From contig JALSGO010000077.1 in assembly GCA_026982655.1 (NCBI GenBank), positions 1-33,293 on the forward strand: 33,293 bases of DNA. Reading direction: 5' to 3'. The first letter of the stretch is position 1; every line of letters starts with the position of its first letter. Positions 6,939 through 21,119 of the stretch are shown here, piece after piece. This DNA comes from Candidatus Bipolaricaulota bacterium (GTDB lineage Bacteria > Bipolaricaulota > Bipolaricaulia > RBG-16-55-9). Position numbers and translations under genes: made by a program. The notes under the pieces are model-generated. The model saw only the letters and a list, made by a program, of their open reading frames with translations. It had not been told where the DNA came from and ran no database searches.

Positions 6939-8840
6939 ATGATTCGCAAGATGAAGCGGGTGTACCTTCTGTACACCCGAGCCGAGCAGGAGCGGCTGAT
7001 TCGGACCCTACAACGGCTCGGGGTGCTCCACCTCGAGGAGGCTCCTCCCGCGGATCCCGAGGCCGAGCCCCGCGCGGAGGAGGAGCTTTCCGAGCAGCGA
7101 CGCGAGATCGAGAACCTCCTCATCAAGGCCCGTGGCGTCTTGGACCTCTTCGAGGAGATCGATCCGCAGCTCGTCCGGGGCATTCCCCGGGTGCCCAGAG
7201 CGGTCACGGAGGAGATCTCCCTTTCCGAGACCTTGCGCGAGGAGATCGAGAAGCTCGAAGGCCGCCTGCGGACGCTTGTTGCAGAGCGCCGTAGCCTCCG
7301 AGACCGCCTGGCTGCCGGAGAGCGCTTTCGCGAGGTCGTCTACGCGGCCGAAGCGCTTCTCCAAGAGGTGCCTACCGAAGGGAGAGCGGTTCTCGCGTTC
7401 TTGGGAAAGGCCCAAGATCGGGATCGCGAGCTGCTGTCGCAGATCGAACAGACGCTGCAACAGACCCTTGCAGGCCGGTTCCAGCTCGCCCGGCAGAGCC
7501 TCAGCGAGGGACGGATTCTGCTGATCGTAAGCGTAGACCCCCTCTACTCCGACGCGGTGCAGGAGTATCTGGAGGCGAAGGGACTGCGTCCGCTGGCGTT
7601 TCCGCCCCATGTCGAGGCCGAGAAGGGCCTGTCCGAGGCCCTCGCCCAGCTGCGCGCGGAGGAGACGACCCTCCCTCGTCGGCTCGCTCTTCTCGAGGCG
7701 GAGCTGCGAACGCTGGCGGCCGAGCACGTCTCCACCCTCCTGCCTCTTGTTGCTGCCTTGGAGAACCGGTTGGCTCAGCTGGATGCGGCCATGCGATTCG
7801 GATATACGGACTTCTCGTTGCTCGTCATCGGATGGGTTCCCGCCGACGAGCTCCCGCGCTTCCGCGAGGAACTCCAACGGGAGTTCCCCGGAATCGTGAT
7901 CAACGAGGACCCCCAGCCCGCCTCCCACGAAGAGATTCCGGTCGCGTTCCAGAACCCGCCCTGGGTGCGTCCCTATCAGCTCCTCTTGGAGTTGATGGGC
8001 CTGCCCAAGTACGGCACCGTAGACCCTACGCCGTTTGTGAGCCTGTTCTTCCCCACCTTCTTCGGGCTGATCGTGGGGGACTTCGGGTACGGGCTCGCGC
8101 TGCTGGCGATCGTCCTGTGGGCCAAGCGCAAGTGGGGGCACACGAGCGAGATGCTCCGACATGGCCTTACGATCGCCACCCACGCCTCGGTGATGGCCGT
8201 GCTCTTCGGGCTGGTCTTCGGCGAGTTCTTCGGGTTCGTGATGCCCTGGCCCCACTTCGCGCGGCTTAAGGCGGCCACCTCGTTCCTGCTCTTCGCCGTC
8301 GCCTTGGGGGCGGTCCACGTGCTTCTCGGATTCCTGCTCGGGGCGATCAACGCGCTGCGCGAGCGCAGCCCGAAGCACCTCTCCGCGAAGCTGGGAGGGG
8401 GCCTCGCCCTGCTGGCCATCGGGGTTGTGGTGGGGACACTCTCCGGCGTGCTCCCCGAGGAGCTGCGCACGCCGGGGATCGCCCTGTTGGCCGCCGCGCT
8501 GGTGATGCTCCTCTACGGCGAGGGATTCATGGGGCTCTTGGAGGTGTTCACGTACGTGGGCCACGTGGTCTCCTACGCCCGGATCATGGGCTTTGGACTC
8601 GCTGCCGTGGTGTTGGCGGAGCTGGCCAACGAGGCCGCCGGGGCCGTGGGGAACCTCGTGCTGGGGGTGCTGGTGGGGGTCGCCCTGCACGCCGCCCACT
8701 TGGTGTTGGACGCCTTCGAGTCCACGATCCAGTCGGCCCGGTTGCACCTGGTCGAGTTCTTCCACAAGTTCTACGAGGCGGGCGGACGGGCCTACGAGCC
8801 GTTCCGCGAGCGCGCGGGCGTCCCGCTTCGGGAGGAATAA
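6939..8840 (+). CDS. atpI: V/A-type ATPase subunit I (membrane a-subunit)
   Basis: The product is 633 aa. It has a soluble coiled-coil N-terminal half and a C-terminal polytopic membrane domain, and sits at the right position in the operon. Confidence 0.85.
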   Translation: MIRKMKRVYLLYTRAEQERLIRTLQRLGVLHLEEAPPADPEAEPRAEEELSEQRREIENLLIKARGVLDLFEEIDPQLVRGIPRVPRAVTEEISLSETLREEIEKLEGRLRTLVAERRSLRDRLAAGERFREVVYAAEALLQEVPTEGRAVLAFLGKAQDRDRELLSQIEQTLQQTLAGRFQLARQSLSEGRILLIVSVDPLYSDAVQEYLEAKGLRPLAFPPHVEAEKGLSEALAQLRAEETTLPRRLALLEAELRTLAAEHVSTLLPLVAALENRLAQLDAAMRFGYTDFSLLVIGWVPADELPRFREELQREFPGIVINEDPQPASHEEIPVAFQNPPWVRPYQLLLELMGLPKYGTVDPTPFVSLFFPTFFGLIVGDFGYGLALLAIVLWAKRKWGHTSEMLRHGLTIATHASVMAVLFGLVFGEFFGFVMPWPHFARLKAATSFLLFAVALGAVHVLLGFLLGAINALRERSPKHLSAKLGGGLALLAIGVVVGTLSGVLPEELRTPGIALLAAALVMLLYGEGFMGLLEVFTYVGHVVSYARIMGFGLAAVVLAELANEAAGAVGNLVLGVLVGVALHAAHLVLDAFESTIQSARLHLVEFFHKFYEAGGRAYEPFRERAGVPLREE

Positions 8841-8893
8841 CGAGCGAAACCGAGCAAATTCAAAACCCATCCAAAGGAGCGTGAGGCGAGACG

Positions 8894-9229
8894 ATGACCT
8901 TCAAGTTCAAGCTCAACAAGTTGGCCAAGGCGGTGTTGATCTTCAACGTGATCCTGTTGAGTCTCCTGATCGGCGGTTTGGTCGTATCGGCCCAAGAGGA
9001 AGAGGAGGCCAAGGGTGCGGACCCGTTGGCCCAGGGGATCCGGGCCGTGGGAGCGGGACTGGCGTTCTTGGGAGGGGCTCTGGGAACCGGCATCGCCCAG
9101 TCGCGCATCGGACCGGCGGTGATGGGCGCGGTCGCCGAGGACCGAGCGAACTTCGGAATCGGCTTGATTCTCATCGCCATCCCCGAGACGCTCGTGATCT
9201 TCGGCTTCGTGGTCATCTTCCTGCTGTAA
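8894..9229 (+). CDS. atpK: V/A-type ATPase proteolipid subunit K (c/L)
   Basis: The product is 111 aa and hydrophobic. It has the Gly-rich helix GAGLAFLGGALGTGIAQ and the conserved carboxylate in IPETLVIFGFVV. Confidence 0.8.
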   Translation: MTFKFKLNKLAKAVLIFNVILLSLLIGGLVVSAQEEEEAKGADPLAQGIRAVGAGLAFLGGALGTGIAQSRIGPAVMGAVAEDRANFGIGLILIAIPETLVIFGFVVIFLL

Positions 9230-9239
9230 TCTAAGGACG

Positions 9240-9839
9240 ATGGAGCTTCTGGAGAAGATCCGACGCGAGGGGGAGGAGCGGGTCCAGACGATCCTCCGAG
9301 AGGCCGAGGAGGAGGCGCAAAGGCGCATCCAGGCCGCGGAGGAGGAACTCTCCCGCTGGCGGGAGGAAGCCCTCAAGCGCGCCGACTCCGAGATCGAGGG
9401 CGAGAAGCGCCTGATCTTGAGTCGAGCGCGCGCCCGCGCGCGGGAGATCGTGCTGCGGGCCAAGAGCGAGGCGGGCGAGCAGCTCTTCCGCAGCCTCTTG
9501 GAGGAGGCCGAGAAGCTGCGGGAGGACGCCAAGCGCTACAAGGCGTTCCTTGCGCGCTGCCTGAAGGAAGCCGAGGCCGAGATCGGCGGCCCGCTCGTGC
9601 TCTACGTGGACCCCCGCGACGAGAAGCTCGTCAAGTCGCTCCTTAAGGGAAAGGACCACAAAATCGGCGGCTCGATCAAGACCCTCGGGGGGGTCCTGGC
9701 GACGAACGAGCGCGGCGACCTCCTGGTGGACAACCGCCTGGAGACCCGCATCCAGAAGCTTCGGGAGATCCATCGCGCGGCGCTGAGCTACGAGCTCTTC
9801 GGCGCGCAGGCCCCCAAGACCCAAGCCACGGTGGCCTGA
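9240..9839 (+). CDS. atpE: V/A-type ATPase subunit E
   Basis: The product is 199 aa with a charged coiled-coil N-terminus (MELLEKIRREGEERVQTILREAEEEAQRR). It sits at the expected operon position. Confidence 0.8.
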   Translation: MELLEKIRREGEERVQTILREAEEEAQRRIQAAEEELSRWREEALKRADSEIEGEKRLILSRARARAREIVLRAKSEAGEQLFRSLLEEAEKLREDAKRYKAFLARCLKEAEAEIGGPLVLYVDPRDEKLVKSLLKGKDHKIGGSIKTLGGVLATNERGDLLVDNRLETRIQKLREIHRAALSYELFGAQAPKTQATVA

Positions 9840-9866
9840 TCCCGAGCGTTTCGATCCGATCCCGCG

Positions 9867-10952
9867 ATGAGCTACGAATACCTGAACGCGCGGCTGCGGC
9901 ACCTCAAGGCCCGGCTCCTCAAGCCGGAGCAGTTCGCCCAGCTGTTGGGGCTGAGTGATTTGGAGGAGTTCATCGCCGCGCTGGCCGAGACGGATTACGC
10001 GCCCGAGATCGAGCGGAGTTCCGTGGAGTTTTCGGGCTACGCGCTCGTCGAGGACGCGCTCACCCGGCACACCCAACGGGTCTTTCGGCACCTGGCGGAC
10101 ATGGCTGTCGGCGAGGCCGACACCCTCATCCGCATCCTGTTGGAGCGCTTCGAGGTCTTCAACCTGAAGACCATTCTGCGGGGCTTCCACGCCGGGGTAG
10201 ACCCGGAAGAGACGGCCCGCAACCTCTTCCCCACCATCCTGTACCCGACGGCCTTCTACCAGGAGTTGCTCAAGCGCGAGGGGATCCCTGCGGTGGTCGA
10301 TTACCTGCTGGCGGTGGGGAATCGCTTCTACAAGCCGCTGACGGAGGCCTTGCCCGACTACGAGGCGACCCGCCGCCTGGCCCGCTTGGAAGGTGCCTTG
10401 GATGCGTTCTACTTCGAAAGCGCTCAGAAGACCCTGCGGGAGATGAGGAGCGAGAGCGCCGAGATCGTCCGCAAGATGCTCGGGGTCGAGGTCGACGTGC
10501 TCAACTTGGTGTACGCGCTCCGGGTCGTCGAGGCCGGGGTGGAGGCGGAGGAGAAGTTCCGGTACATCCTGCCGGGGGGCGAGCGGATCCAGGAGCCCCT
10601 GATGCGAGAGCTGCTCGCCAGCTTGGACAAGGCGGCCTTCTTGCGGAAGCTGCAGGAAACCCCGTACGCCCGCGCGCTGGGCGAGTTCGACGAGACGATC
10701 ACCGCCGGGGAGCTCCAGGAGCGTCTCGAGGCTTGGCTTTATAATCAGAACTGCCGCATCGATCCGGGGCGGTTCTTCGACATCCAGCCCGTGGCCGCTT
10801 ATATCTGGCGCGTGAACGTGGAGGTCACAAACTTAAGGGTAATCGCCTCGGGGCTGTGGCGCGGCGCCTCGCGGCAGGCCGTCGAGGACCAGCTCATCTG
10901 GGTCCCGGGCGTGATGCCCGAGCGCGAGCGCGTCGTGGCGGGAGCCTCCTAA
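9867..10952 (+). CDS. atpC: V/A-type ATPase subunit C (the d-subunit homolog)
   Basis: The product is 361 aa, starts MSYEYLNARLRHLKARLL and is all-helical. It sits at the expected operon position. Confidence 0.8.
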   Translation: MSYEYLNARLRHLKARLLKPEQFAQLLGLSDLEEFIAALAETDYAPEIERSSVEFSGYALVEDALTRHTQRVFRHLADMAVGEADTLIRILLERFEVFNLKTILRGFHAGVDPEETARNLFPTILYPTAFYQELLKREGIPAVVDYLLAVGNRFYKPLTEALPDYEATRRLARLEGALDAFYFESAQKTLREMRSESAEIVRKMLGVEVDVLNLVYALRVVEAGVEAEEKFRYILPGGERIQEPLMRELLASLDKAAFLRKLQETPYARALGEFDETITAGELQERLEAWLYNQNCRIDPGRFFDIQPVAAYIWRVNVEVTNLRVIASGLWRGASRQAVEDQLIWVPGVMPERERVVAGAS

Positions 10953-11020
10953 TCTCGGATCGGAGCTTGACGGGGGACGGGACTCCGGAGAAGCGAGGAC
11001 GACGGGAGGCGAGGAAGCCG

Positions 11021-11389
11021 ATGAAGCCGAAGGCGAGGAAGCCGCTGGTGGTGGCCGCGAGCGACATGGCCGACGGGTTCCGCTTGGCCGGGATTCCCGT
11101 CCTGGAGCTCGAAGACGAGACGCACATCGACGAGGTGATTCAGCGCATCCGGGAGCGGGAGGACGTGGCCCTCGTCCTCGTGGACGAGCGGTTCATGGGG
11201 CCGTTCGAGGAGGCGTTCGAGGCCGCGGGCTGGCCGATGATCGCCTCCTACCCCTCCGAGCTCGTCCAAAGGGAGCAGTCGTACATCGACGAGCTCACGA
11301 TGCGCTACCTGGGACAGAAGATCTACGTGGAAGGCGAATCCGAGTCCGAATCCGAGGGCGAAATCGAAGGGGAGGGAGACGGAGCATGA
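11021..11389 (+). CDS. atpF: V/A-type ATPase subunit F with an acidic Glu/Ser-rich C-terminal tail
   Basis: The N-terminus MKPKARKPLVVAASDMADGFRLAGIP aligns with the subunit F N-terminus (..VIAD.ETA.GFRLAG). I took the internal start at 11021; the longer ORF from 10856 overlaps atpC. The C-terminus is YVEGESESESEGEIEGEGDGA. The stop overlaps the atpA start (ATGA). Confidence 0.75.
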   Translation: MKPKARKPLVVAASDMADGFRLAGIPVLELEDETHIDEVIQRIREREDVALVLVDERFMGPFEEAFEAAGWPMIASYPSELVQREQSYIDELTMRYLGQKIYVEGESESESEGEIEGEGDGA

Positions 11390-13188
11390 CACAGGTGATT
11401 GAGGGCGTCATCTCCCGGATCTCCGGCCCGGTGGTGCGGGCCAAGGGGATGACGGGGATCAAGATCCGCGACCTCGTCGAGGTGGGCGAGATGGGCCTCA
11501 TCGGCGAGGTCATCGAAGTCCGGGGCGACGAGATCGCCATCCAGGTCTACGAGGAGACGGACGGCCTCACCGTGGGCGAGCCTGTCCGCTCCGAGGGGAA
11601 GCCCTTCTTGGTCGAGCTGGGGCCCGGACTCTTGGGGAGCGTCTACGACGGGATCCAGCGCCCCCTGGAGGTGATTCGAGATCAGACGGGGAACTTCATC
11701 GAGCGCGGGGCTTCGGGCGACCCGCTGCCCCGGAACAAGAAGTGGGGCTTTCAGCCTCTGGTGAAGCCGGGCGACGAGGTCTCGGAGGGGGACTTCCTAG
11801 GCTGGGTCCAGGAGACCCCCACGATCAAGCACTACATCCTGGTGCCCATCGGGATCTCCGGGCGCATCGCCGAGATCCAAGAGGGCGACTTCACCGTGAC
11901 GGACGTCATCGCCCGCCTGGAGGACGGCACGGAGCTCACCATGATGCAGACGTGGCCCATCCGCCAGCCCCGCCCGGCCAAGCGGAAAGTCCCCACGAGC
12001 GTCCCTATGATCACGGGGACCCGGATTCTCGATGTGTTCTTCCCCGTGCCCAAGGGGGGGAACGCGATCATCCCGGGACCCTTTGGTAGCGGAAAAACCG
12101 TAACTCAGCAATCTTTGGCTAAGTGGTCCGATGCGGATATCGTCATTTATATTGGATGCGGCGAGCGCGGGAACGAGATGACCGAGGTGCTGACGGAGTT
12201 CCCCGAGCTGGAGGACCCGCGCACCGGCGCGCCCCTGATGAACCGCACCGTCCTGATCGCCAACACCTCGAACATGCCCGTGGCCGCCCGCGAGACCTCG
12301 ATCTACACGGGGATCACGTTAGCGGAATATTACAGGGACATGGGCTACGACGTGGCCTTGATGGCCGACTCCACCTCACGGTGGGCCGAGGCGCTCCGTG
12401 AGATCTCCGGGCGTCTCGAGGAGATGCCCGGCGAGGAGGGCTACCCGCCCTATCTAGCGAGCCGTATCGCAGAGTTTTATGAGCGAAGCGGTCGCGTGGT
12501 GTGCCTGGGGAGGGGGATCCCCGAGGGCAAGCCGCCCTTCGAGGGCACCCAAGACGAGCGGGGTGGATCCGTGACGGTGATCGGGGCCGTCTCCCCGCCC
12601 GGAGGAGATTTCTCCGAGCCCGTCACCCAAAACTCCCTGAGGATCGCGGGCGCCTTCTGGGGGTTGGACGCCAAGCTCGCCTACAGCCGCCACTTCCCCG
12701 CCATCAACTGGCTTACGAGCTACTCCCTCTACGTGGACGCGCTGCGGGAGTGGTACATTCAGGAGTTGGGCGAAGAGTATCTGGAGATGCGCACCCAGCT
12801 CATGGACATCCTCCAGAAGGAAGATGAACTGAGCAAGATCGTCCAGCTCGTGGGGAAAGAATCGCTCAGCGACCCGGACAAACTCTTGCTGGACATCGCC
12901 CGCACGGTGCGCGACGACTTCCTGCGACAGAGTGCCTTCCACGAGATCGAGGCCTACTGCCCGCCCAAGAAGGCCTACTACATGATGAAGGCGATCCTCA
13001 CCTTCTACGAGACCTGTAAGCGGCTGTTGGGGAAGGTGCCCTACGCCGAAATTCTGAAGCTCCCGGGCTGGGAGAAGCTCTCCAACATGCGCTACTTCCC
13101 CAACGACGCCTTCGAGGAGCCGTTCCAGCAGCTCCTCAAGGAGCTGGAGGAGGAGGGGGCGACCGTGGGCGTGGGGGCCGCTTCCTAG
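11386..13188 (+). CDS. atpA: V/A-type ATPase catalytic subunit A
   Basis: The product is 600 aa. The Walker A motif GPFGSGKT is present, together with the non-homologous insert region typical of A subunits. Confidence 0.95.
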   Translation: MTQVIEGVISRISGPVVRAKGMTGIKIRDLVEVGEMGLIGEVIEVRGDEIAIQVYEETDGLTVGEPVRSEGKPFLVELGPGLLGSVYDGIQRPLEVIRDQTGNFIERGASGDPLPRNKKWGFQPLVKPGDEVSEGDFLGWVQETPTIKHYILVPIGISGRIAEIQEGDFTVTDVIARLEDGTELTMMQTWPIRQPRPAKRKVPTSVPMITGTRILDVFFPVPKGGNAIIPGPFGSGKTVTQQSLAKWSDADIVIYIGCGERGNEMTEVLTEFPELEDPRTGAPLMNRTVLIANTSNMPVAARETSIYTGITLAEYYRDMGYDVALMADSTSRWAEALREISGRLEEMPGEEGYPPYLASRIAEFYERSGRVVCLGRGIPEGKPPFEGTQDERGGSVTVIGAVSPPGGDFSEPVTQNSLRIAGAFWGLDAKLAYSRHFPAINWLTSYSLYVDALREWYIQELGEEYLEMRTQLMDILQKEDELSKIVQLVGKESLSDPDKLLLDIARTVRDDFLRQSAFHEIEAYCPPKKAYYMMKAILTFYETCKRLLGKVPYAEILKLPGWEKLSNMRYFPNDAFEEPFQQLLKELEEEGATVGVGAAS

Positions 13189-14370: not shown

Positions 14371-14565
14371 TTAAGGCGATTGCCTGGACCCGCCCGTGAG
14401 GTTCTCCAGGGGATAGAGCGGGGCGAGCCGGCGGATCTTCTCGAGAATGGCCTGCCGTTCCCTCTCGCTCGTCGCCTGCGCGTACTTCTCCTTGAGCTTT
14501 TGGATCTTCTGCCGCCGCTTCTGCCACTTCCGCAGCAAGAACCGCTCTCGCTTCGGCTTGGGCAT
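14371..14565 (-). CDS. hypothetical small basic protein (about 64 aa), tentative
   Basis: The product reads MPKPKRERFLLRKWQKRRQKIQKLKEKYAQATSERERQAILEKIRRL. Its K/R/E-rich composition is coherent, whereas the overlapping plus-strand ORF looks like an antisense artefact. It lies 40 nt downstream of the beta-CASP gene on the same strand. The Shine-Dalgarno sequence is weak. Confidence 0.3.
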   Translation of the reverse strand: MPKPKRERFLLRKWQKRRQKIQKLKEKYAQATSERERQAILEKIRRLAPLYPLENLTGGSRQSP

Positions 14566-14605: not shown

Positions 14606-16183
14606 CTACAGCTTGAGAGAAACCCCTTCCCGGGGGAGAACGACTTGAACGGGGCTGTCGGCAAGCTTTTCCTGAAACCATTGGGGGTGCTCGGTGTGGA
14701 GGGGCACGACGACCTTGGGCTCTACGGCGAGGACAAAGCGCAGAAGCTCGGGACCGGCAGCGTGGCCGCTGGCATGCACTTGAAGGGGCCGGTGACCGTT
14801 GTGGGAGTTGATGTCGAAGCGGGCGAGCCATCGAATCAAGCGCTCCTGAGACAATTCCATCTCCTCGTTGAACGGCTCGGTCATGGCCCGGACGTAGCGG
14901 GACCCCTCGGGGGGCTGTATGTCCAAGAGGTTGTTGAAGCGCCAGTAGTCGAGCTGGAGCACGTAGCGCTCGGGCTCCCGGCGCAGGTCCAGGGCAGTAA
15001 GCCCCTTCTCGAGATGGGTGAGGTCCGGGCCTTCTTCCTTGGTCCATTGCGCTTTGTACCCGGCTTTGTACTTGTAGTGGACGTAATCTGCCGGGCTGTA
15101 GAGTAGGTAGTGGCTACGCTCCAAGAAGACGTGGACGCAGGGGTCGGCCTCCGGAGCGTGCGGGTGCTCTAAGTGATGCAGCAGGTAGGCGAGCCGAGGG
15201 AAGACGACGAGCTCGCGTCCGGCGGCCAAGGCCGCCTCGCGGACGGTCTCGAAGCGCTCGACGTCCTTCCAGGCGAACCCAACCATTGCAAGTCCTCGGG
15301 TCTCCCGAAATGCTTGAGTTAGTTCCTCGCAGACGCGGGCCTCGTCGTCGCGTTCCTCTTCAGCGACCCGGGTCCCCTCGATGAGGAGCACGTCGGGCTC
15401 GAGGCCCTCTAGATGCCGAAGGGGGTCGATGGGCCAGCGCCCGTGGAAGCGGATATCTCCCGTATAAAGGACCGTCCTCCCTTGGGATCGGAGGACGAAG
15501 GCCGTCGCGCCGGGGACGGAGTGGCTCACAGCCACGGGCCAGACGGTGATCTCGGGGCTCTCGGGGAGGGGAAAGGGCCGATGGGGCTCTACGGTGTGGA
15601 GGGTGCGGGGTTCCTCTTGACCGCTGACGATCTTGGGAGCTCCCGGGGCGAAGCCCTGCTTGCTACACTGCAGGACGCGGCGCTTGAGGCGGACGGCGTC
15701 GCGCTCAAAGCCGCTGTAGTTCCCCACCTCCATGGCAATCTCCATGAGGGTGCGGGTGGGGGCGGAAGCGTAGATGGGCACGTGCCCTAAGAAGCCGACG
15801 AGCCCGACGTGGTCGTCGTGGGCGTGGCTAAGGAGGACGACGTCTACGGGAGGCTTCCCGTGGCGCTCGATGTGCTCCTCGGCACAGGGGAGATCGCACT
15901 CCCAGAGGGGGGCGCTGCGCCCCAGGAGCTTGGGATCGCCGAGGGGTGCGAAGGCATCCCGGCGGTAGAGTCCGGGGATGCGGGGTAAGATCCCCAGCTG
16001 GAGGTAGTCGTGGAGCTGGGCGTTGGTGCGGGGGGCTAGGTACTCCTCGTAGTAGAGGGCCTTGCGCTTGTAGGAGATGCCGAAATCCAGCAAGACTTTG
16101 CCCACGGGGAACTCGACGAGGACCTTATTGCCCCCGATCTCGTTGACGCCACCGTGGAGGGTGATCCTTATGCCCTTAGTCAT
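14606..16183 (-). CDS. RNase J-like metallo-beta-lactamase / beta-CASP family nuclease
   Basis: The product is 525 aa. The N-terminus IRITLHGGVNEIGGNKVLVEF is MBL motif 1. LSHAHDDHVG is the HxHxDH motif. The C-terminal HASGHAAGPELLRFV...VVPLHTE is the beta-CASP motif C seen in RNase J. The start lies 2 nt after the SbcC-like stop. Confidence 0.75.
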   Translation of the reverse strand: MTKGIRITLHGGVNEIGGNKVLVEFPVGKVLLDFGISYKRKALYYEEYLAPRTNAQLHDYLQLGILPRIPGLYRRDAFAPLGDPKLLGRSAPLWECDLPCAEEHIERHGKPPVDVVLLSHAHDDHVGLVGFLGHVPIYASAPTRTLMEIAMEVGNYSGFERDAVRLKRRVLQCSKQGFAPGAPKIVSGQEEPRTLHTVEPHRPFPLPESPEITVWPVAVSHSVPGATAFVLRSQGRTVLYTGDIRFHGRWPIDPLRHLEGLEPDVLLIEGTRVAEEERDDEARVCEELTQAFRETRGLAMVGFAWKDVERFETVREAALAAGRELVVFPRLAYLLHHLEHPHAPEADPCVHVFLERSHYLLYSPADYVHYKYKAGYKAQWTKEEGPDLTHLEKGLTALDLRREPERYVLQLDYWRFNNLLDIQPPEGSRYVRAMTEPFNEEMELSQERLIRWLARFDINSHNGHRPLQVHASGHAAGPELLRFVLAVEPKVVVPLHTEHPQWFQEKLADSPVQVVLPREGVSLKL

Positions 16184-19049
16184 TGCGTTGCTTACAAAAC
16201 CTCACTTGATGAATTCTCTCTTTGAGTCTCGGGACCTGCTCGAAAAGCCACCGATGGCGTACCTCATGGCACGAGAAGACGATAACTTGACGATCTCGAG
16301 CGAGATGCTCGGCTAAGAGCTTCATCCCCTTGAGGAAGCGCTCGTCGTGGCTGTGGGGAAAGGGCTCGTCGAGGACCAACGGAAGGGTCAGTTTGCCTTG
16401 TGCCAGGAAGTCAGCGATTGCAGCACGGACGATAAAATACAGTTGCTCAACCGTTCCACCGCTGAGCCTGGGAGGGGAACGATCTTGGGAAGCGTGGAGC
16501 TTCTGCTTTGTCTCAGGGTGGATAAACGTTAAGCGTAGGTCCTTCTCGAAGCGAGGCTTCCCGTAATGGGGGAGGATCTCTTGGAAAGCCCTTGTGGCAA
16601 ACCCGTTCAGATGCTCAGCCCAAATCTCGTAGACCTCAGTCGAGATGTGTCGTAACGTATCTTTGGCAATTGCTACTGCGCTTTCTACTTTCTCCGCTCT
16701 CTTCAAGCTTTGCTTCCGATCTCTAAGCTCTTGGTAGAGCTCAGGCAAAGAGCGAGTCTCTTGCAAGGTTGAACGGATCTCTTCCTCCAAACAAGAGACT
16801 TTCTCCCGCATCTCTTCGATATCGTTTGTTATTTGATCCAGCTGTCGTTGGTAGAAGATTCGATCTGCGTCAGGATCAGGGCAAACCGTTCCTTCAGGCC
16901 AGTCCGATTGCATTTGTGCAATTTGCTGCTTTAGCTCTTCTATTCGCTCCTTTAGGCGGTTCCTCTCCTCAGGAGGGAGAAGGAGCTCGCGCTCTCGCTC
17001 GATCTCCTGCACCAGCTGGCGAAAGCGCTGGACTTTCTTGACAGCCTGGTCAAACGCGGTTCGTGCGTCCTCGCCTCGGAGGCTGCTGTCCAATCCGGAC
17101 TCTTGTAAAAGCTCCTCGACCGCTTGATTCTGCATTTGCAGCTGTTTTTCCTTCTGGATGATATCTCCTTCCCGTTCCGAGATCTTCCGGCGGAGCTCCT
17201 CCTGCCGGGAGCGCAGAGAAAGGGCTAGATTTGCATTCTCAAGGATCTCTCCAAGAGAAGCGGAGGAAACCTTATCGAGCTGTAGGGCAACCCCTCTGTG
17301 CTCGCACCAGCGATAGGCTTCTTCGCGCAGTTGGCGTAGTTCGTCTTGAACGCCTTCCCACTGTGCCAGGAGCCTCTGAAGCTCTACTGTTTCCTGTTGA
17401 AGAGCTTGCCACTCCGCGAAGCTTGTGAGGAGATCCTCCTCGGAGCCAGTTTCTAGCTCACGAGCCAAAAACCTTAACCGCCGGTCCCTCTCCTGCTCGT
17501 CCTGTTCTAGCCGGTTGAGGTCTTCCTGCGCTCGCTGAAGATCCAGCTTGATGTTCTCATAGTCTCGATCGTATTTGGATTTGCCCCTTTGGTGTAGAAC
17601 CGCCCCCCCAAGGGCCATCAGTGCACCTATCCCGGTCAAGATCCCTCCAGCCGTCACGTTTCCCCAAGCTGTAAGCGCAAGTCCGGCCCCTAGGGCTACC
17701 AACCCACTGAGCCCTGCGAGGCGCGTTATCCGCCTCCAGTGGGCCCTTTTGCTCTCGATCTCTTGGAGGGATTCTTCCGCTCTGTCCCTTCGAAGGGCGA
17801 TGTTCTCCCTTTGTTGCGCTCCCTGTGCTCGGGCATGAGAGGCTTCATAGAGGAAGCGACGATCCTCGGGGGATAATCTTTCAAAGAGTTCCTGCAACTC
17901 CTCCAGCCTGTGTTCATCAAACCCTTCCGCTGCCAGGCGCGCCCGCTCCTTGTCCATCCGATTGCACAGCTCCCGATCTGAGCGCTCTGCCTCTTCCAGT
18001 CTCTTGATCAGTCCGAGCAGATCGTCCCTTTCGTGTTGGGTGCAGTGGGCCAACTCCCTCAGCTGTTCGAGGCTCTGTTCACAAGCTTCCAGTCTCCTGC
18101 GTTCTTCCTCTAACTTTCTCTTGAGCTGGGTGATCTCCGTTGAAAGCCTGTCAATTTCATCAAGCCAGCGATATAAGTTCCTTTGCTGAGCGTCGGGGAA
18201 CTCCGCATAATCCGCGAGACGCTCTTGCTCTTCCTCAAGCTGCCGGATTCGCTCCCGTCTTTGGCTATCCTGTTGGAGCTGGTTCTCCACTTCTTGAAGC
18301 TCCGTTTGATATAGCAGATACGTTGTGGTGGTTTGCTGGCATCGTCGCTCGTTAAGTTCCACGTGCAGGCGAGACAGTTGATCTTCTTTGTCCTCGATGC
18401 GGTTACGTCTCTGTTCCAACTTTTGAATCTCGGCGGTTAACTCAGCGATTCGCTGCTTAAGACGTTTCTTCTCTGTGCTCAGCTTCAGCTTCTTCCCCAT
18501 CTTGCGAAGGGGATAGTCATTCTCAATCTGCTCTAGGGCATCAAGGGCTTCAGCAACGGTGCGTTCACCTCCTTGGGCATCCGCCACGCGTTGCAGGACA
18601 CGAGTTAGGCCTTCCGGGTCTTGGATTGCCATCTTCCCCTGCTCGACGAAGACGCTCTTTTGGAACTCCTCGCGTGAGAGGTCCAGCAATTCTTCGCCTA
18701 TGGGGATCATCTTGTTCTTCGAGGCAAGGAACCGATCCGTGATGTCGTGACCATCCTCCCAGATGCGAACGCGTCCGTGTCTGAAGTTCCGCTCAATGAT
18801 CACCCTTTTACCTTGTAGCTCTAGCTCTAGTGCTAGGGAGAAGGCTCCATCGTTCAAAGGCTGCCAGCTCCATAGTGGATCGGTTGGCTTCGGTTTGCGA
18901 GGCCCGTAGAGCCCCTCGAGGATGGAGGCTGCGAGCGTGGACTTCCCCTCTTCGTTGGGGGCAATCCAGAGGTTGAGCCCTTCCGGCTGAAACTCGATGT
19001 GGCCGGACAAACAACCGAAATCCCTTAGCTCAATCCGCCGAATTCTCAT
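16176..19049 (-). CDS. YhaN/SbcC/Rad50-like SMC-family ABC ATPase with a central double-transmembrane hairpin
   Basis: The product is 957 aa. The N-terminal P-loop LWIAPNEEGKSTLAASIL is of the AAA_27/YhaN type (NE[AE]GKST). A very long coiled coil follows. The C-terminus has the signature RLSGGTVEQL, the Walker B LVLDEPF and an H-loop SCHE. No CxxC zinc hook is present. Instead, residues about 444-485 (LAGLSGLVALGAGLALTAWGNVTAGGILTGIGALMALGGAVL) form two hydrophobic helices. Confidence 0.8.
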   Translation of the reverse strand: MRIRRIELRDFGCLSGHIEFQPEGLNLWIAPNEEGKSTLAASILEGLYGPRKPKPTDPLWSWQPLNDGAFSLALELELQGKRVIIERNFRHGRVRIWEDGHDITDRFLASKNKMIPIGEELLDLSREEFQKSVFVEQGKMAIQDPEGLTRVLQRVADAQGGERTVAEALDALEQIENDYPLRKMGKKLKLSTEKKRLKQRIAELTAEIQKLEQRRNRIEDKEDQLSRLHVELNERRCQQTTTTYLLYQTELQEVENQLQQDSQRRERIRQLEEEQERLADYAEFPDAQQRNLYRWLDEIDRLSTEITQLKRKLEEERRRLEACEQSLEQLRELAHCTQHERDDLLGLIKRLEEAERSDRELCNRMDKERARLAAEGFDEHRLEELQELFERLSPEDRRFLYEASHARAQGAQQRENIALRRDRAEESLQEIESKRAHWRRITRLAGLSGLVALGAGLALTAWGNVTAGGILTGIGALMALGGAVLHQRGKSKYDRDYENIKLDLQRAQEDLNRLEQDEQERDRRLRFLARELETGSEEDLLTSFAEWQALQQETVELQRLLAQWEGVQDELRQLREEAYRWCEHRGVALQLDKVSSASLGEILENANLALSLRSRQEELRRKISEREGDIIQKEKQLQMQNQAVEELLQESGLDSSLRGEDARTAFDQAVKKVQRFRQLVQEIERERELLLPPEERNRLKERIEELKQQIAQMQSDWPEGTVCPDPDADRIFYQRQLDQITNDIEEMREKVSCLEEEIRSTLQETRSLPELYQELRDRKQSLKRAEKVESAVAIAKDTLRHISTEVYEIWAEHLNGFATRAFQEILPHYGKPRFEKDLRLTFIHPETKQKLHASQDRSPPRLSGGTVEQLYFIVRAAIADFLAQGKLTLPLVLDEPFPHSHDERFLKGMKLLAEHLARDRQVIVFSCHEVRHRWLFEQVPRLKERIHQVRFCKQRND

Positions 19050-20292
19050 TGTCGTCCTCTTCGTCCTCAGCTGCTAGGAACCCTGTTTCCCTGACGAACA
19101 CCTTTCCGAGGGTCAGCGCATCCAGCCCCATGTAAAGAGCTTCTTTGAGGATGGCTCGCTTCTCGGGATCGCTCTCCTCATCCATTTGGTGGAGGAGCTC
19201 GCGCGCGAAGCGAGCCTCCACGGTGTGGCTCTTGCTGTGACGGTAAGCCTCTAAGTCATAGTCCGGCTCGGCTTGGTTCACGACGTGCACGTGCCAAAAA
19301 CGCTCTTCTAAATCTTGGGGGACGTTAGGCATAACGCCATGCGGATGTCGGCCTGTTAGCTCCACGCAGAGCACATCATCCTGAACGGGCTGGGGTCCCA
19401 CTTCCCTCTCGATTGTGGTATGGATCCTCTCGTGCATCGCTTCTTGATGGTCTGTCCCCGTTAAATCCACTGGAACGATCCAAATCCGCCTTGGGTCAAG
19501 AGAAATTGGCTCTATGTCTGGAGAAACGCCGTCGTGCGTGATCTCTAAGATTAAGACGCCTTTCTTTTCGGTTTCCCGACGGTTTCGGGCTACTAAGCAC
19601 CCGGAATAGGCAGCTCGAACACGCCCTTGATCGTCTTGAATCGTCTGAAAGGCGTGGTAATGTCCCAGTGCCGCGTAGGAGAAGCCTTGGCACAATAGCT
19701 CTGCGTCCTCAAAAGGCGCTGTGATGAGCGGCTTCCCTCCGGGATGGAATCCCCCAAGACGCGAGCCATGGAAGAGCAGAATTTGGATCTCAGCGTCTTC
19801 GGGACGCGAGATCTTCTGCTGTAGGAGCCGCTCTTCTAAGGGCACGTTTTCGCGGAACGCCCGCCCTGTGATTGTGACCTCCGGTCGATTCGGCAGCCGA
19901 ACCGTCTCGAACTCGCCGGATGTGAATACGTAAACGTTTGGAGGCCAAGGAGACAGCCCGTGACGGGCCCAGAAATCCGGGGTATAGCCACACCGTGAGG
20001 AGTAGAAATCGTGGTTGCCAGGAGCTATATACGCCGGGATGTCGTGTTCATAAAGCTTGCGAAATTGAGCCCCGAGCCAGCCTACGGTATCGGGGGTGAG
20101 TCTTTCGTCTTCCCACAAGTCTCCAGGGATAAGTACTACGTCCACCGAGCGCTCGATGGCAAGGTCTATAGCTTTTTCAAAAGCCTTCCGGATGTCTTGA
20201 AGGCGAGCCTGCTGAGTTTGAACATCAGGGAACAGGGCTGCGGAGACTGCGCCATCGAGGTGCACATCAGAGATTTGCAAGGCTTTTAGCAT
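19030..20292 (-). CDS. YhaO/SbcD/Mre11-like calcineurin-type phosphoesterase (nuclease)
   Basis: The product is 420 aa. The metallophosphatase motifs are ISDVHLD, GDLWED, GNHD, FHGS and GHYH. It overlaps the downstream ATPase gene by 20 nt. Confidence 0.8.
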   Translation of the reverse strand: MLKALQISDVHLDGAVSAALFPDVQTQQARLQDIRKAFEKAIDLAIERSVDVVLIPGDLWEDERLTPDTVGWLGAQFRKLYEHDIPAYIAPGNHDFYSSRCGYTPDFWARHGLSPWPPNVYVFTSGEFETVRLPNRPEVTITGRAFRENVPLEERLLQQKISRPEDAEIQILLFHGSRLGGFHPGGKPLITAPFEDAELLCQGFSYAALGHYHAFQTIQDDQGRVRAAYSGCLVARNRRETEKKGVLILEITHDGVSPDIEPISLDPRRIWIVPVDLTGTDHQEAMHERIHTTIEREVGPQPVQDDVLCVELTGRHPHGVMPNVPQDLEERFWHVHVVNQAEPDYDLEAYRHSKSHTVEARFARELLHQMDEESDPEKRAILKEALYMGLDALTLGKVFVRETGFLAAEDEEDDNENSAD

Positions 20293-20408
20293 ACGTACAG
20301 CCCCTTTCTCGGATTTTCATGGCTCACCCGCGCACTCTTCCTAGCAGAGGATAACCCTCTGTGTCAAGAGTGGGAAGTGCGCCCGCGGTCCATCTGAGCT
20401 ATCATACG

Positions 20409-21119
20409 ATGATTATGAGCATTACGGAGCGTGTCCATCTCGCTCGGGAAAGGATCGCCCGCGCTGCCGAGCGCGCCGGGCGCTCTCCCCAAGACGTGCG
20501 CATCTTGGCGGCCACCAAGGGCCGCTCTGTTGCTGAGATCCTTGAAGCCCTCAAAGCGGGCATCGACCTCATCGGGGAGAACACCGTACAAGAAGCGCTC
20601 GGCAAGTTCGAGTTCCTCCCCCAAGAGCTGGAGAAGCACATGATCGGGACCCTCCAGCTCAACAAGGTCAAGGCCGCCGTAAAGCTCTTTCACGCTATAC
20701 AGTCCGTGGACTCGTGGGAGCTGGCCCGGGCCCTCGACCGCGAACTTTCCCGTATAGAGAGGGAGGAACCGTATTCCATCTTCCTAGAGGTGAACCCCGC
20801 AGGCGAGGAGACCAAGCGGGGCCTCCCTCCCGATCAAGTAGAGCCCCTGATCGAGCAAATCCAGGACCTCCAGAACGTGCGCGTCGTGGGGCTCATGGCG
20901 ATGATGCCCTATCAAGACCCCGAGACGCTTCGGCCTCACTTCCGCGCCATGCGGGAACTCTTCGAGCACCTACACCAACAGGCCCGGCAGAAGGGCTGGG
21001 CCCGGGTCGAGATGCGGTGGCTCTCGATGGGGATGTCCCACGACTTCGAGGTGGCCGTCGAGGAGGGCGCGAATCTGGTACGATTGGGGACGGTCCTCTT
21101 CGGACCCCGGGAGGCGTAA
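20409..21119 (+). CDS. yggS: YggS/PLPHP-family pyridoxal-phosphate homeostasis protein
   Basis: The N-terminus reads MIMSITERVHLARERIARAAERAGRSPQDVRILAATKGRS...LIGENTVQEA, the alanine-racemase-N-like fold with the conserved K. I chose ATG 20409 (or 20415) over the upstream GTG at 20361. Confidence 0.8.
   Translation: MIMSITERVHLARERIARAAERAGRSPQDVRILAATKGRSVAEILEALKAGIDLIGENTVQEALGKFEFLPQELEKHMIGTLQLNKVKAAVKLFHAIQSVDSWELARALDRELSRIEREEPYSIFLEVNPAGEETKRGLPPDQVEPLIEQIQDLQNVRVVGLMAMMPYQDPETLRPHFRAMRELFEHLHQQARQKGWARVEMRWLSMGMSHDFEVAVEEGANLVRLGTVLFGPREA

Follow-up and report, generated by a model that had tools for sequence, protein, structure and literature searches.

The stretch of DNA analysed here, referred to as the window, is a contig of 33,293 nucleotides (nt) from Candidatus Bipolaricaulota bacterium (JALSGO010000077.1), and its minus strand encodes a large Rad50/SbcC-like ATPase of 957 amino acids (aa). 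Our reading, to which we assign a probability of about 0.75, is that this protein is of the YhaN/SbcE type and belongs to a membrane-tethered Mre11/Rad50-like complex, in which a predicted transmembrane (TM) hairpin at the apex of the coiled coil replaces the zinc hook. Membrane insertion is suggested by sequence statistics together with a structure model, and for the complex as a whole we infer an in-out-in topology, a hook-like dimerisation through the hairpin and a DNA substrate. The protein divides into the following parts.

16176..19049, minus strand: whole gene, a YhaN/SbcE-type, structural maintenance of chromosomes (SMC)-like, ATP-binding cassette (ABC) ATPase, 957 aa; Pfam AAA_27 and AAA_23, Rad50 sequence matches, Foldseek
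18483..19049, minus strand: N-terminal half of the ABC head, residues 1-189; Walker A GKST at 35-38 and Q-loop Q137, motifs read off the sequence
17721..18482, minus strand: ascending coiled-coil arm, residues 190-443; AlphaFold2 (AF2) helices 190-275, 286-329, 338-374, 379-390 and 394-461
17664..17720, minus strand: predicted TM helix 1, residues 444-462, LAGLSGLVALGAGLALTAW; Kyte-Doolittle 19-residue mean (KD19) 1.68, Eisenberg mean hydrophobicity 0.69, hydrophobic moment 0.11; extends AF2 helix 394-461
17652..17663, minus strand: apex turn, tight and uncharged, residues 463-466 (GNVT); AF2 helix break at W462-G463-N464 (DSSP)
17595..17651, minus strand: predicted TM helix 2, residues 467-485, AGGILTGIGALMALGGAVL; KD19 1.81, Eisenberg mean hydrophobicity 0.74, hydrophobic moment 0.19; extends into AF2 helix 465-532
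16575..17594, minus strand: descending coiled-coil arm, residues 486-825; AF2 helices 465-532, 537-584, 596-650, 659-688, 693-715, 730-765 and 768-825
16176..16574, minus strand: C-terminal half of the ABC head, residues 826-957, and the stop codon; LSGG at 862-865, Walker B LDEP at 893-896 and H928

The hydrophobic segment lies exactly where the original prediction had placed it, at positions 17595-17720, and translation of the minus strand there gives LAGLSGLVALGAGLALTAWGNVTAGGILTGIGALMALGGAVL (residues 444-485), whose centre at relative position 0.49 puts it at the midpoint of the protein. The description of two Gly/Ala-rich hydrophobic helices also holds, since Gly and Ala make up 48% of the hairpin, which contains eight small-xxx-small motifs (those in TM helix 2 at 469, 475 and 479), and the KD19 maxima of 1.68 (window starting at residue 444) and 1.81 (start 467) compare with a best value of 1.08 elsewhere in the ATPase. 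Eisenberg mean hydrophobicities of 0.69 and 0.74 for the two segments compare with -0.2 to -0.7 for windows in the adjoining coiled coil. Because these high values go with low hydrophobic moments (0.11 and 0.19), the helices are uniformly hydrophobic and do not have the character of a soluble amphipathic coil. A single KD19 window of at least 1.6 was reached by 381 of 2000 (19%) composition-preserving shuffles, and for this reason the length of the charge-free run was taken as the test of significance. Residues 444-487 form a run of 44 residues without Asp, Glu, Lys or Arg, in a protein in which these four account for 35% of the residues; the expectation for such a run is ∼2e-6, and the longest seen in the 2000 shuffles was 28 residues. 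Basic clusters stand on either side, with R435-AHWRRIT-R443 ending the ascending arm directly before the hydrophobic segment and HQRGKSK (486-492) opening the descending arm. The protein has 10 Cys residues, and the CxxC motif of a zinc hook, which had been noted as missing from the coiled coil, occurs nowhere in its 957 residues.

That the protein is a Rad50/SbcC-like ATPase was likewise borne out. It exceeds the Pfam cut-offs for AAA_27 (29.1 against 22 bits) and AAA_23 (30.5 against 27 bits), with AAA_15 slightly under its cut-off; the nearest solved structures by sequence in the PDB are Rad50 ATPase heads (E = 2e-7), and a Foldseek comparison with the PDB has Rad50, Smc5/6, condensin, MukB and JetC as its top matches and also gives LmuB. 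NCBIfam gives sub-threshold matches only, to Rad50, SMC and related models, and for the best Rad50 model the score is 69.6 bits and the cut-off 700. The split ABC head is complete (GKST 35-38, Q137, LSGG 862-865, LDEP 893-896 and H928), and its motifs do not vary in alignments of 13 and of 40 homologues. Invariant head residues include N32, G35, K36 and S37 and, in the 40 homologues, S863, G865, R875 and D894; R435, in the basic cluster before the hairpin, is nearly invariant.

The AF2 model was built from the alignment of 40 homologues and has a mean predicted local distance difference test (pLDDT) score of 85.1, rising above 90 for residues 1-50. It consists of a beta-rich head built by both termini and a nearly unbroken helical arm; the 254 residues of the ascending strand would measure ∼38 nm if straight. 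Helix 394-461 is separated from helix 465-532 by residues 462-464, which alone are non-helical, and the chain reverses there. As the hydrophobic helices directly prolong both strands of the coiled coil, this turn (W462-G463-N464) is the apex of the arm in the model, in agreement with the apical location first proposed. No globular SMC-type hinge is present at the apex, where AF2 has a turn of three residues, and the Pfam scan gave no SMC_hinge match.

The hairpin is shared throughout the close relatives of the protein. All 13 homologues of the first round have a hydrophobic core at the midpoint and lack CxxC. A family profile, searched against 1.84 billion cluster representatives, retrieved 9,189 proteins at E<=1e-30, and conservation was assessed on the best 150 cluster representatives, 144 of which are full length. 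Every one of these 144 has the hydrophobic segment, at relative position 0.47-0.50, and none (0/144) has a central CxxC, so that no conventional zinc hook appears among the close homologues. The core has a median length of 46.5 aa (5th-95th percentile 40-56) and resolves into two peaks in 124/144. In a Clostridia-like branch of shorter proteins (850-870 aa), 118/118 have the hairpin without a central CxxC. Many of the more distant matches have no hairpin, and six carry CxxC at relative position 0.50-0.55; judged by their sequence, true hooks of the SbcC type are present in these six, which act as a positive control for the scan. Named members with the hairpin come from Dormibacterota, Gemmatimonadota and Clostridia. 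A pattern scan of genome contigs, with the pattern taken from a four-sequence alignment, gave 40 matches and zero relatives.

Many homologues are far more hydrophobic than the present protein, with KD19 values of 2.5-3.3. Pairwise identity in the hairpin is 0.22; it falls to 0.15 in the coils next to it and reaches 0.34-0.37 in the head. The combination of low identity in the hairpin with invariant hydrophobicity, length and position is what would be expected of a membrane anchor. Across 310 hairpin-bearing proteins, the six residues flanking the core contain on average 2.42 Lys or Arg before it and 1.89 after it, compared with 0.89 per six residues elsewhere, and acidic residues are depleted on the N-terminal flank. 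The middle third of the core contains a polar or charged residue in 73% of these proteins, which fits a short exposed turn, and Pro in 64%. Taken together, the family statistics are the sequence signatures of a predicted two-helix membrane hairpin with both ends cytoplasmic. Apical anchoring had been called unusual by the original prediction. The absence of a zinc hook does set the protein apart from canonical Rad50/SbcC, but the hairpin is invariant within the YhaN/SbcE-type clade, and this locus is therefore an ordinary member of it. The predicted hairpin is thus a hallmark of a large, little-studied YhaN/SbcE-type family and is not peculiar to this genome. One Clostridia-like homologue, P0354, has a precomputed Pfam match to PF07332, presumed to lie on its apical hairpin (LMLAGGVMLGIGLLLAILGLVISSAMMALLILGGVLLVGGGIVL, residues ∼410-460). 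We take PF07332 to be a holin-type family, and the match is probably compositional.

The genes on either side of the ATPase gene overlap it on the same strand.

19030..20292, minus strand: SbcD/Mre11-like (YhaO/SbcF-like) calcineurin-type phosphoesterase, 420 aa; Pfam Metallophos (E = 3e-12), weak NCBIfam Mre11 and SbcD matches
14606..16183, minus strand: beta-CASP/RNase J-like metallo-beta-lactamase (MBL) nuclease, 525 aa; Pfam Lactamase_B_2, Lactamase_B and RMMBL, with HxHxDH at 120-125

The 3' end of the phosphoesterase gene overlaps the start of the ATPase gene by 20 nt. The phosphoesterase retains five of five catalytic motifs (I-V: D9xH11, G57D58, GNHD 92-95, H175 and GHYH 210-213) and scores 38.9 with the NCBIfam SbcD model, against a cut-off of 77.65. 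A Metallophos gene is found directly upstream of the ATPase gene in 7/7 loci examined. On the other side, the beta-CASP gene is translationally coupled to the ATPase gene, with an overlap of 8 nt between its start and the ATPase stop (ATGACTAA); the product of the beta-CASP gene, of which RMMBL is the tail, matches the NCBIfam RNase J family far under the cut-off. An MBL gene stands 3' of the ATPase gene here and in the two closest relatives (56% and 47% identity), but not in four more distant loci. Both of these relatives keep the upstream gene for a YggS-type pyridoxal phosphate (PLP) protein, and the window and the 47% relative have an acyl-CoA dehydrogenase neighbour in common, the contig of the 56% relative stopping short of that position. 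The conservation of these neighbours argues for vertical inheritance and against a mobile island.

The closest described counterpart is SbcE (YhaN) of Bacillus subtilis, which has a conserved 'unique' central domain with a hydrophobic first half and a conserved proline, without CxxC and insoluble when expressed alone (Krishnamurthy et al. 2009, PMC2811018). Its describers did not interpret this domain as transmembrane. SbcE interacts with the SbcD-like YhaO (SbcF), contributes to double-strand break repair and transformation, and gathers at the poles of competent cells, the site of the DNA-uptake machinery (PMC2811018). With SbcE the present protein has in common a size of ∼960 aa, an SMC-like ABC ATPase fold with a deviant Walker A, Pfam AAA_27, two heptad regions of ∼300 aa and, between them, a hydrophobic central domain lacking CxxC. 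The operon resembles yhaONM in having an SbcD-like gene directly upstream of the ATPase gene and a third nuclease gene downstream. The host is not a Bacillus but an uncultured bacterium of high GC content that has a V-type ATPase. Assignment to the YhaN/SbcE type rests on Pfam AAA_27, on the JGI name 'uncharacterized protein YhaN' of a 47%-identical homologue (P0003) and on the shared architecture, B. subtilis YhaN having been matched by its description. In Bacillus pumilus, yhaO and yhaN are in the list of the lexA/SOS regulon, and the yhaONM cluster is induced by peroxide (PMC3896406).

With Rad50/Mre11 and SbcC/SbcD the system shares the split ABC head, the long antiparallel coiled coil, the adjacent gene for an Mre11/SbcD-type nuclease and the fold found by Foldseek. 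It departs from Rad50/SbcC in having a hydrophobic two-helix apex instead of a zinc hook. As it lacks the hook and falls below the curated score cut-offs, the protein should not be filed as SbcC.

Some observations weigh against a membrane-tethered complex of the YhaN/SbcE type. A simple sum on the Hessa scale gives ∼+1.6 kcal/mol per helix, which is marginal for autonomous insertion, although hairpins insert cooperatively; the two helices are also rich in Gly and Ala, and TM helix 2 is short (16-19 residues). The downstream gene encodes a beta-CASP metallo-beta-lactamase, whereas Bacillus yhaONM has the YhaM exonuclease in that place; given the unrelated genes there in other loci, a YhaM-type downstream gene is a feature of the Bacillus operon rather than one that defines the family. 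Furthermore, the foci of SbcE-YFP (yellow fluorescent protein) are mobile and were described as located on the nucleoid, with no report of a membrane pattern (PMC2811018). Such foci would suit a soluble hinge, in which at least two hairpins pack as a buried helical bundle and dimerise the arms outside the membrane, as an analogue of the zinc hook or of the SMC hinge. The canonical relatives do dimerise through the apex, and the many small-xxx-small motifs, with the Gly and Ala content of 48%, would also be in keeping with a bundle of this kind; the insolubility of the isolated SbcE central domain in E. coli is compatible with either reading (PMC2811018). We nevertheless regard a soluble hinge as improbable, because a charge-free core of 40-56 residues with hydrophobic moments of 0.1-0.2 would expose a large hydrophobic surface even as a four-helix bundle. 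The enrichment of Lys and Arg tight against both ends of the core is a signature of membrane helices and not of a soluble bundle, the length of the core matches two bilayer spans and a turn in more than 300 proteins, and the sequence is poorly conserved whilst the hydrophobicity is invariant. If the hairpin does enter the bilayer, it might still dip into the inner leaflet without spanning it, in the manner of the monotopic or re-entrant hairpins of lipid-droplet or caveolin type. The short, Gly-rich helices (∼16-19 residues for TM helix 2), their marginal insertion energy, the very short and uncharged turn and the Pro in the middle third of 64% of cores are all features that such a hairpin would account for. 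Full spanning is nevertheless what the family points to, and a re-entrant arrangement is unlikely: a median core of 46.5 aa suffices for two complete spans, many homologues reach KD19 values of 2.5-3.3, and 73% of cores have a polar or charged residue in their middle third, as fits an exposed turn.

A role in Lamassu- or Wadjet-type defence against phages or plasmids, with the hairpin as a membrane-damaging effector or a sensor of DNA entry, would explain why the ATPase matches the PADLOC LmuB models (E = 2e-14 and 4e-10) and, weakly, those for JetC, AriA and PbeC. The PF07332 match of the homologue P0354, with its presumed position on the hairpin, and the GC content of the operon, which is below that of its flanks, could be taken in the same sense. 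What the protein shares with Lamassu LmuB and Wadjet JetC, however, is an SMC-like head and a coiled coil, and the PADLOC matches reflect this generic similarity only; an identity as LmuB, JetC or AriA was rejected on these grounds. Neither neighbouring protein has any PADLOC match, there is no LmuA, LmuC or JetA/B/D partner and no defence-island context, and the partner that is present, a nuclease of the Mre11/SbcD type, is of the kind found in repair complexes. In addition, synteny with housekeeping genes (for the YggS-type PLP protein and acyl-CoA dehydrogenase) is kept among the 47-56% relatives, and yhaONM is part of the DNA-damage response in B. subtilis and B. pumilus. We know of no apical TM hairpin in Lamassu LmuB or Wadjet JetC. 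A defence function of this kind is thus very unlikely.

For a membrane-tethered complex of the YhaN/SbcE type, the following arrangement can be proposed. The N- and C-terminal halves of the chain would form one ABC head, with the chain running out and back between them as an antiparallel coiled coil of ∼35-40 nm. At its tip, the two predicted TM helices (444-462 and 467-485), joined by a turn of three to four residues, would take the place of the CxxC zinc hook. The hairpin would most likely insert in the cytoplasmic membrane with both ends cytoplasmic, so that the tip of the arm is tethered and the ATPase head extends inwards, into the cytoplasm or to the periphery of the nucleoid, tens of nanometres below the membrane. 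There the head would bear the SbcD/Mre11-like nuclease translated along with it and, in the present lineage, also the beta-CASP nuclease, which may add a second nuclease activity as YhaM may in Bacillus. The complex would bind or process DNA ends or structures near the membrane. Within the bilayer, the Gly/Ala-rich helices with their small-xxx-small motifs would probably pair two arms and so assume the dimerising role of the zinc hook.

A broader and more speculative proposal, which we put forward tentatively and hold to be somewhat doubtful, is that throughout the family the hairpin both pairs the arms in the bilayer and fixes the tip, so that an Mre11/Rad50-type nuclease is stationed 35-40 nm off the membrane and acts on entering or attached DNA. 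If this were so, transforming DNA, injected phage or conjugative DNA and membrane-proximal breaks of the chromosome would be its targets, and the complex would represent a branch of end processing that is confined in space and separate from SbcCD. Rad50/SbcC proteins are believed to rely for their function on the zinc hook, which joins apex to apex. A family of ∼9,200 representatives in Clostridia, Dormibacterota, Gemmatimonadota and other phyla, with a predicted membrane hairpin in place of the hook, would accordingly imply a membrane-organised form of DNA-end processing. With such a hairpin, the 'unique central domain' of SbcE and the polar position of SbcE by the DNA-uptake machinery could both be reinterpreted in a simple way, and this is testable in the genetically tractable B. 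subtilis. In a full-text search of the literature, no description of the SbcE/YhaN central domain as transmembrane was found. UniProt entries of the YhaN type already carry flags for predicted TM helices, and the feature has probably been recorded before in database annotation. For the window itself, the analysis supports annotating the operon as a predicted SbcE/SbcF-like membrane-tethered nuclease complex with an extra beta-CASP nuclease.

The GC content is 53-58% over positions 16001-21000, which cover the three-gene operon and the YggS-like gene, compared with 62-69% on both sides. Part of the drop arises because the coiled coil is rich in Glu, Lys and Gln, which leaves the low GC of the SbcD-like gene unexplained. 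The synteny seen in the relatives argues against recent horizontal transfer as its cause.

The open reading frame of the SbcD-like protein (420 aa) is intact in both assemblies, at 19030-20292 on the minus strand of the window and at 8758-10020 in L001. The stored ENA, NCBI and JGI gene calls contain only fragments of 92 and 100 aa at this frame, and the full 420 aa is found only in the Logan call. The fragmented calls look like a gene-calling error, perhaps brought about by the local dip in GC content.

The SbcD-like gene and the divergent YggS-like gene are separated by positions 20293-20360, which contain a perfect 6-bp inverted repeat, CAGAGG-N5-CCTCTG. The repeat is immediately preceded by the hexamer TTGACA and lies upstream of the SbcD-like start. 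By analogy with the SOS-regulated yhaONM of Bacillus, this repeat could be a candidate operator. A scan of the operon for consensus promoters and terminators gave nothing above shuffle expectation, and no promoter was called at the TTGACA site.

On the 3' side of the MBL nuclease gene lies a gene for a DUF6800 protein of 64 aa, at 14371-14565 on the minus strand of the window and at 14485-14679 in L001; the two closest relatives have convergent DUF5647 and DUF7718 genes there instead. Further along, a V/A-type ATPase operon occupies 6939-13188 on the plus strand; among species representatives, the best matches returned for its A subunit share 54-61% identity with it and are spread over archaea, Bacillota, Thermaceae and other groups. 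The genes of this operon for subunits I, c, E, C, F and A are followed directly by the acyl-CoA dehydrogenase gene, which stands where the genes for the B and D subunits would usually follow.

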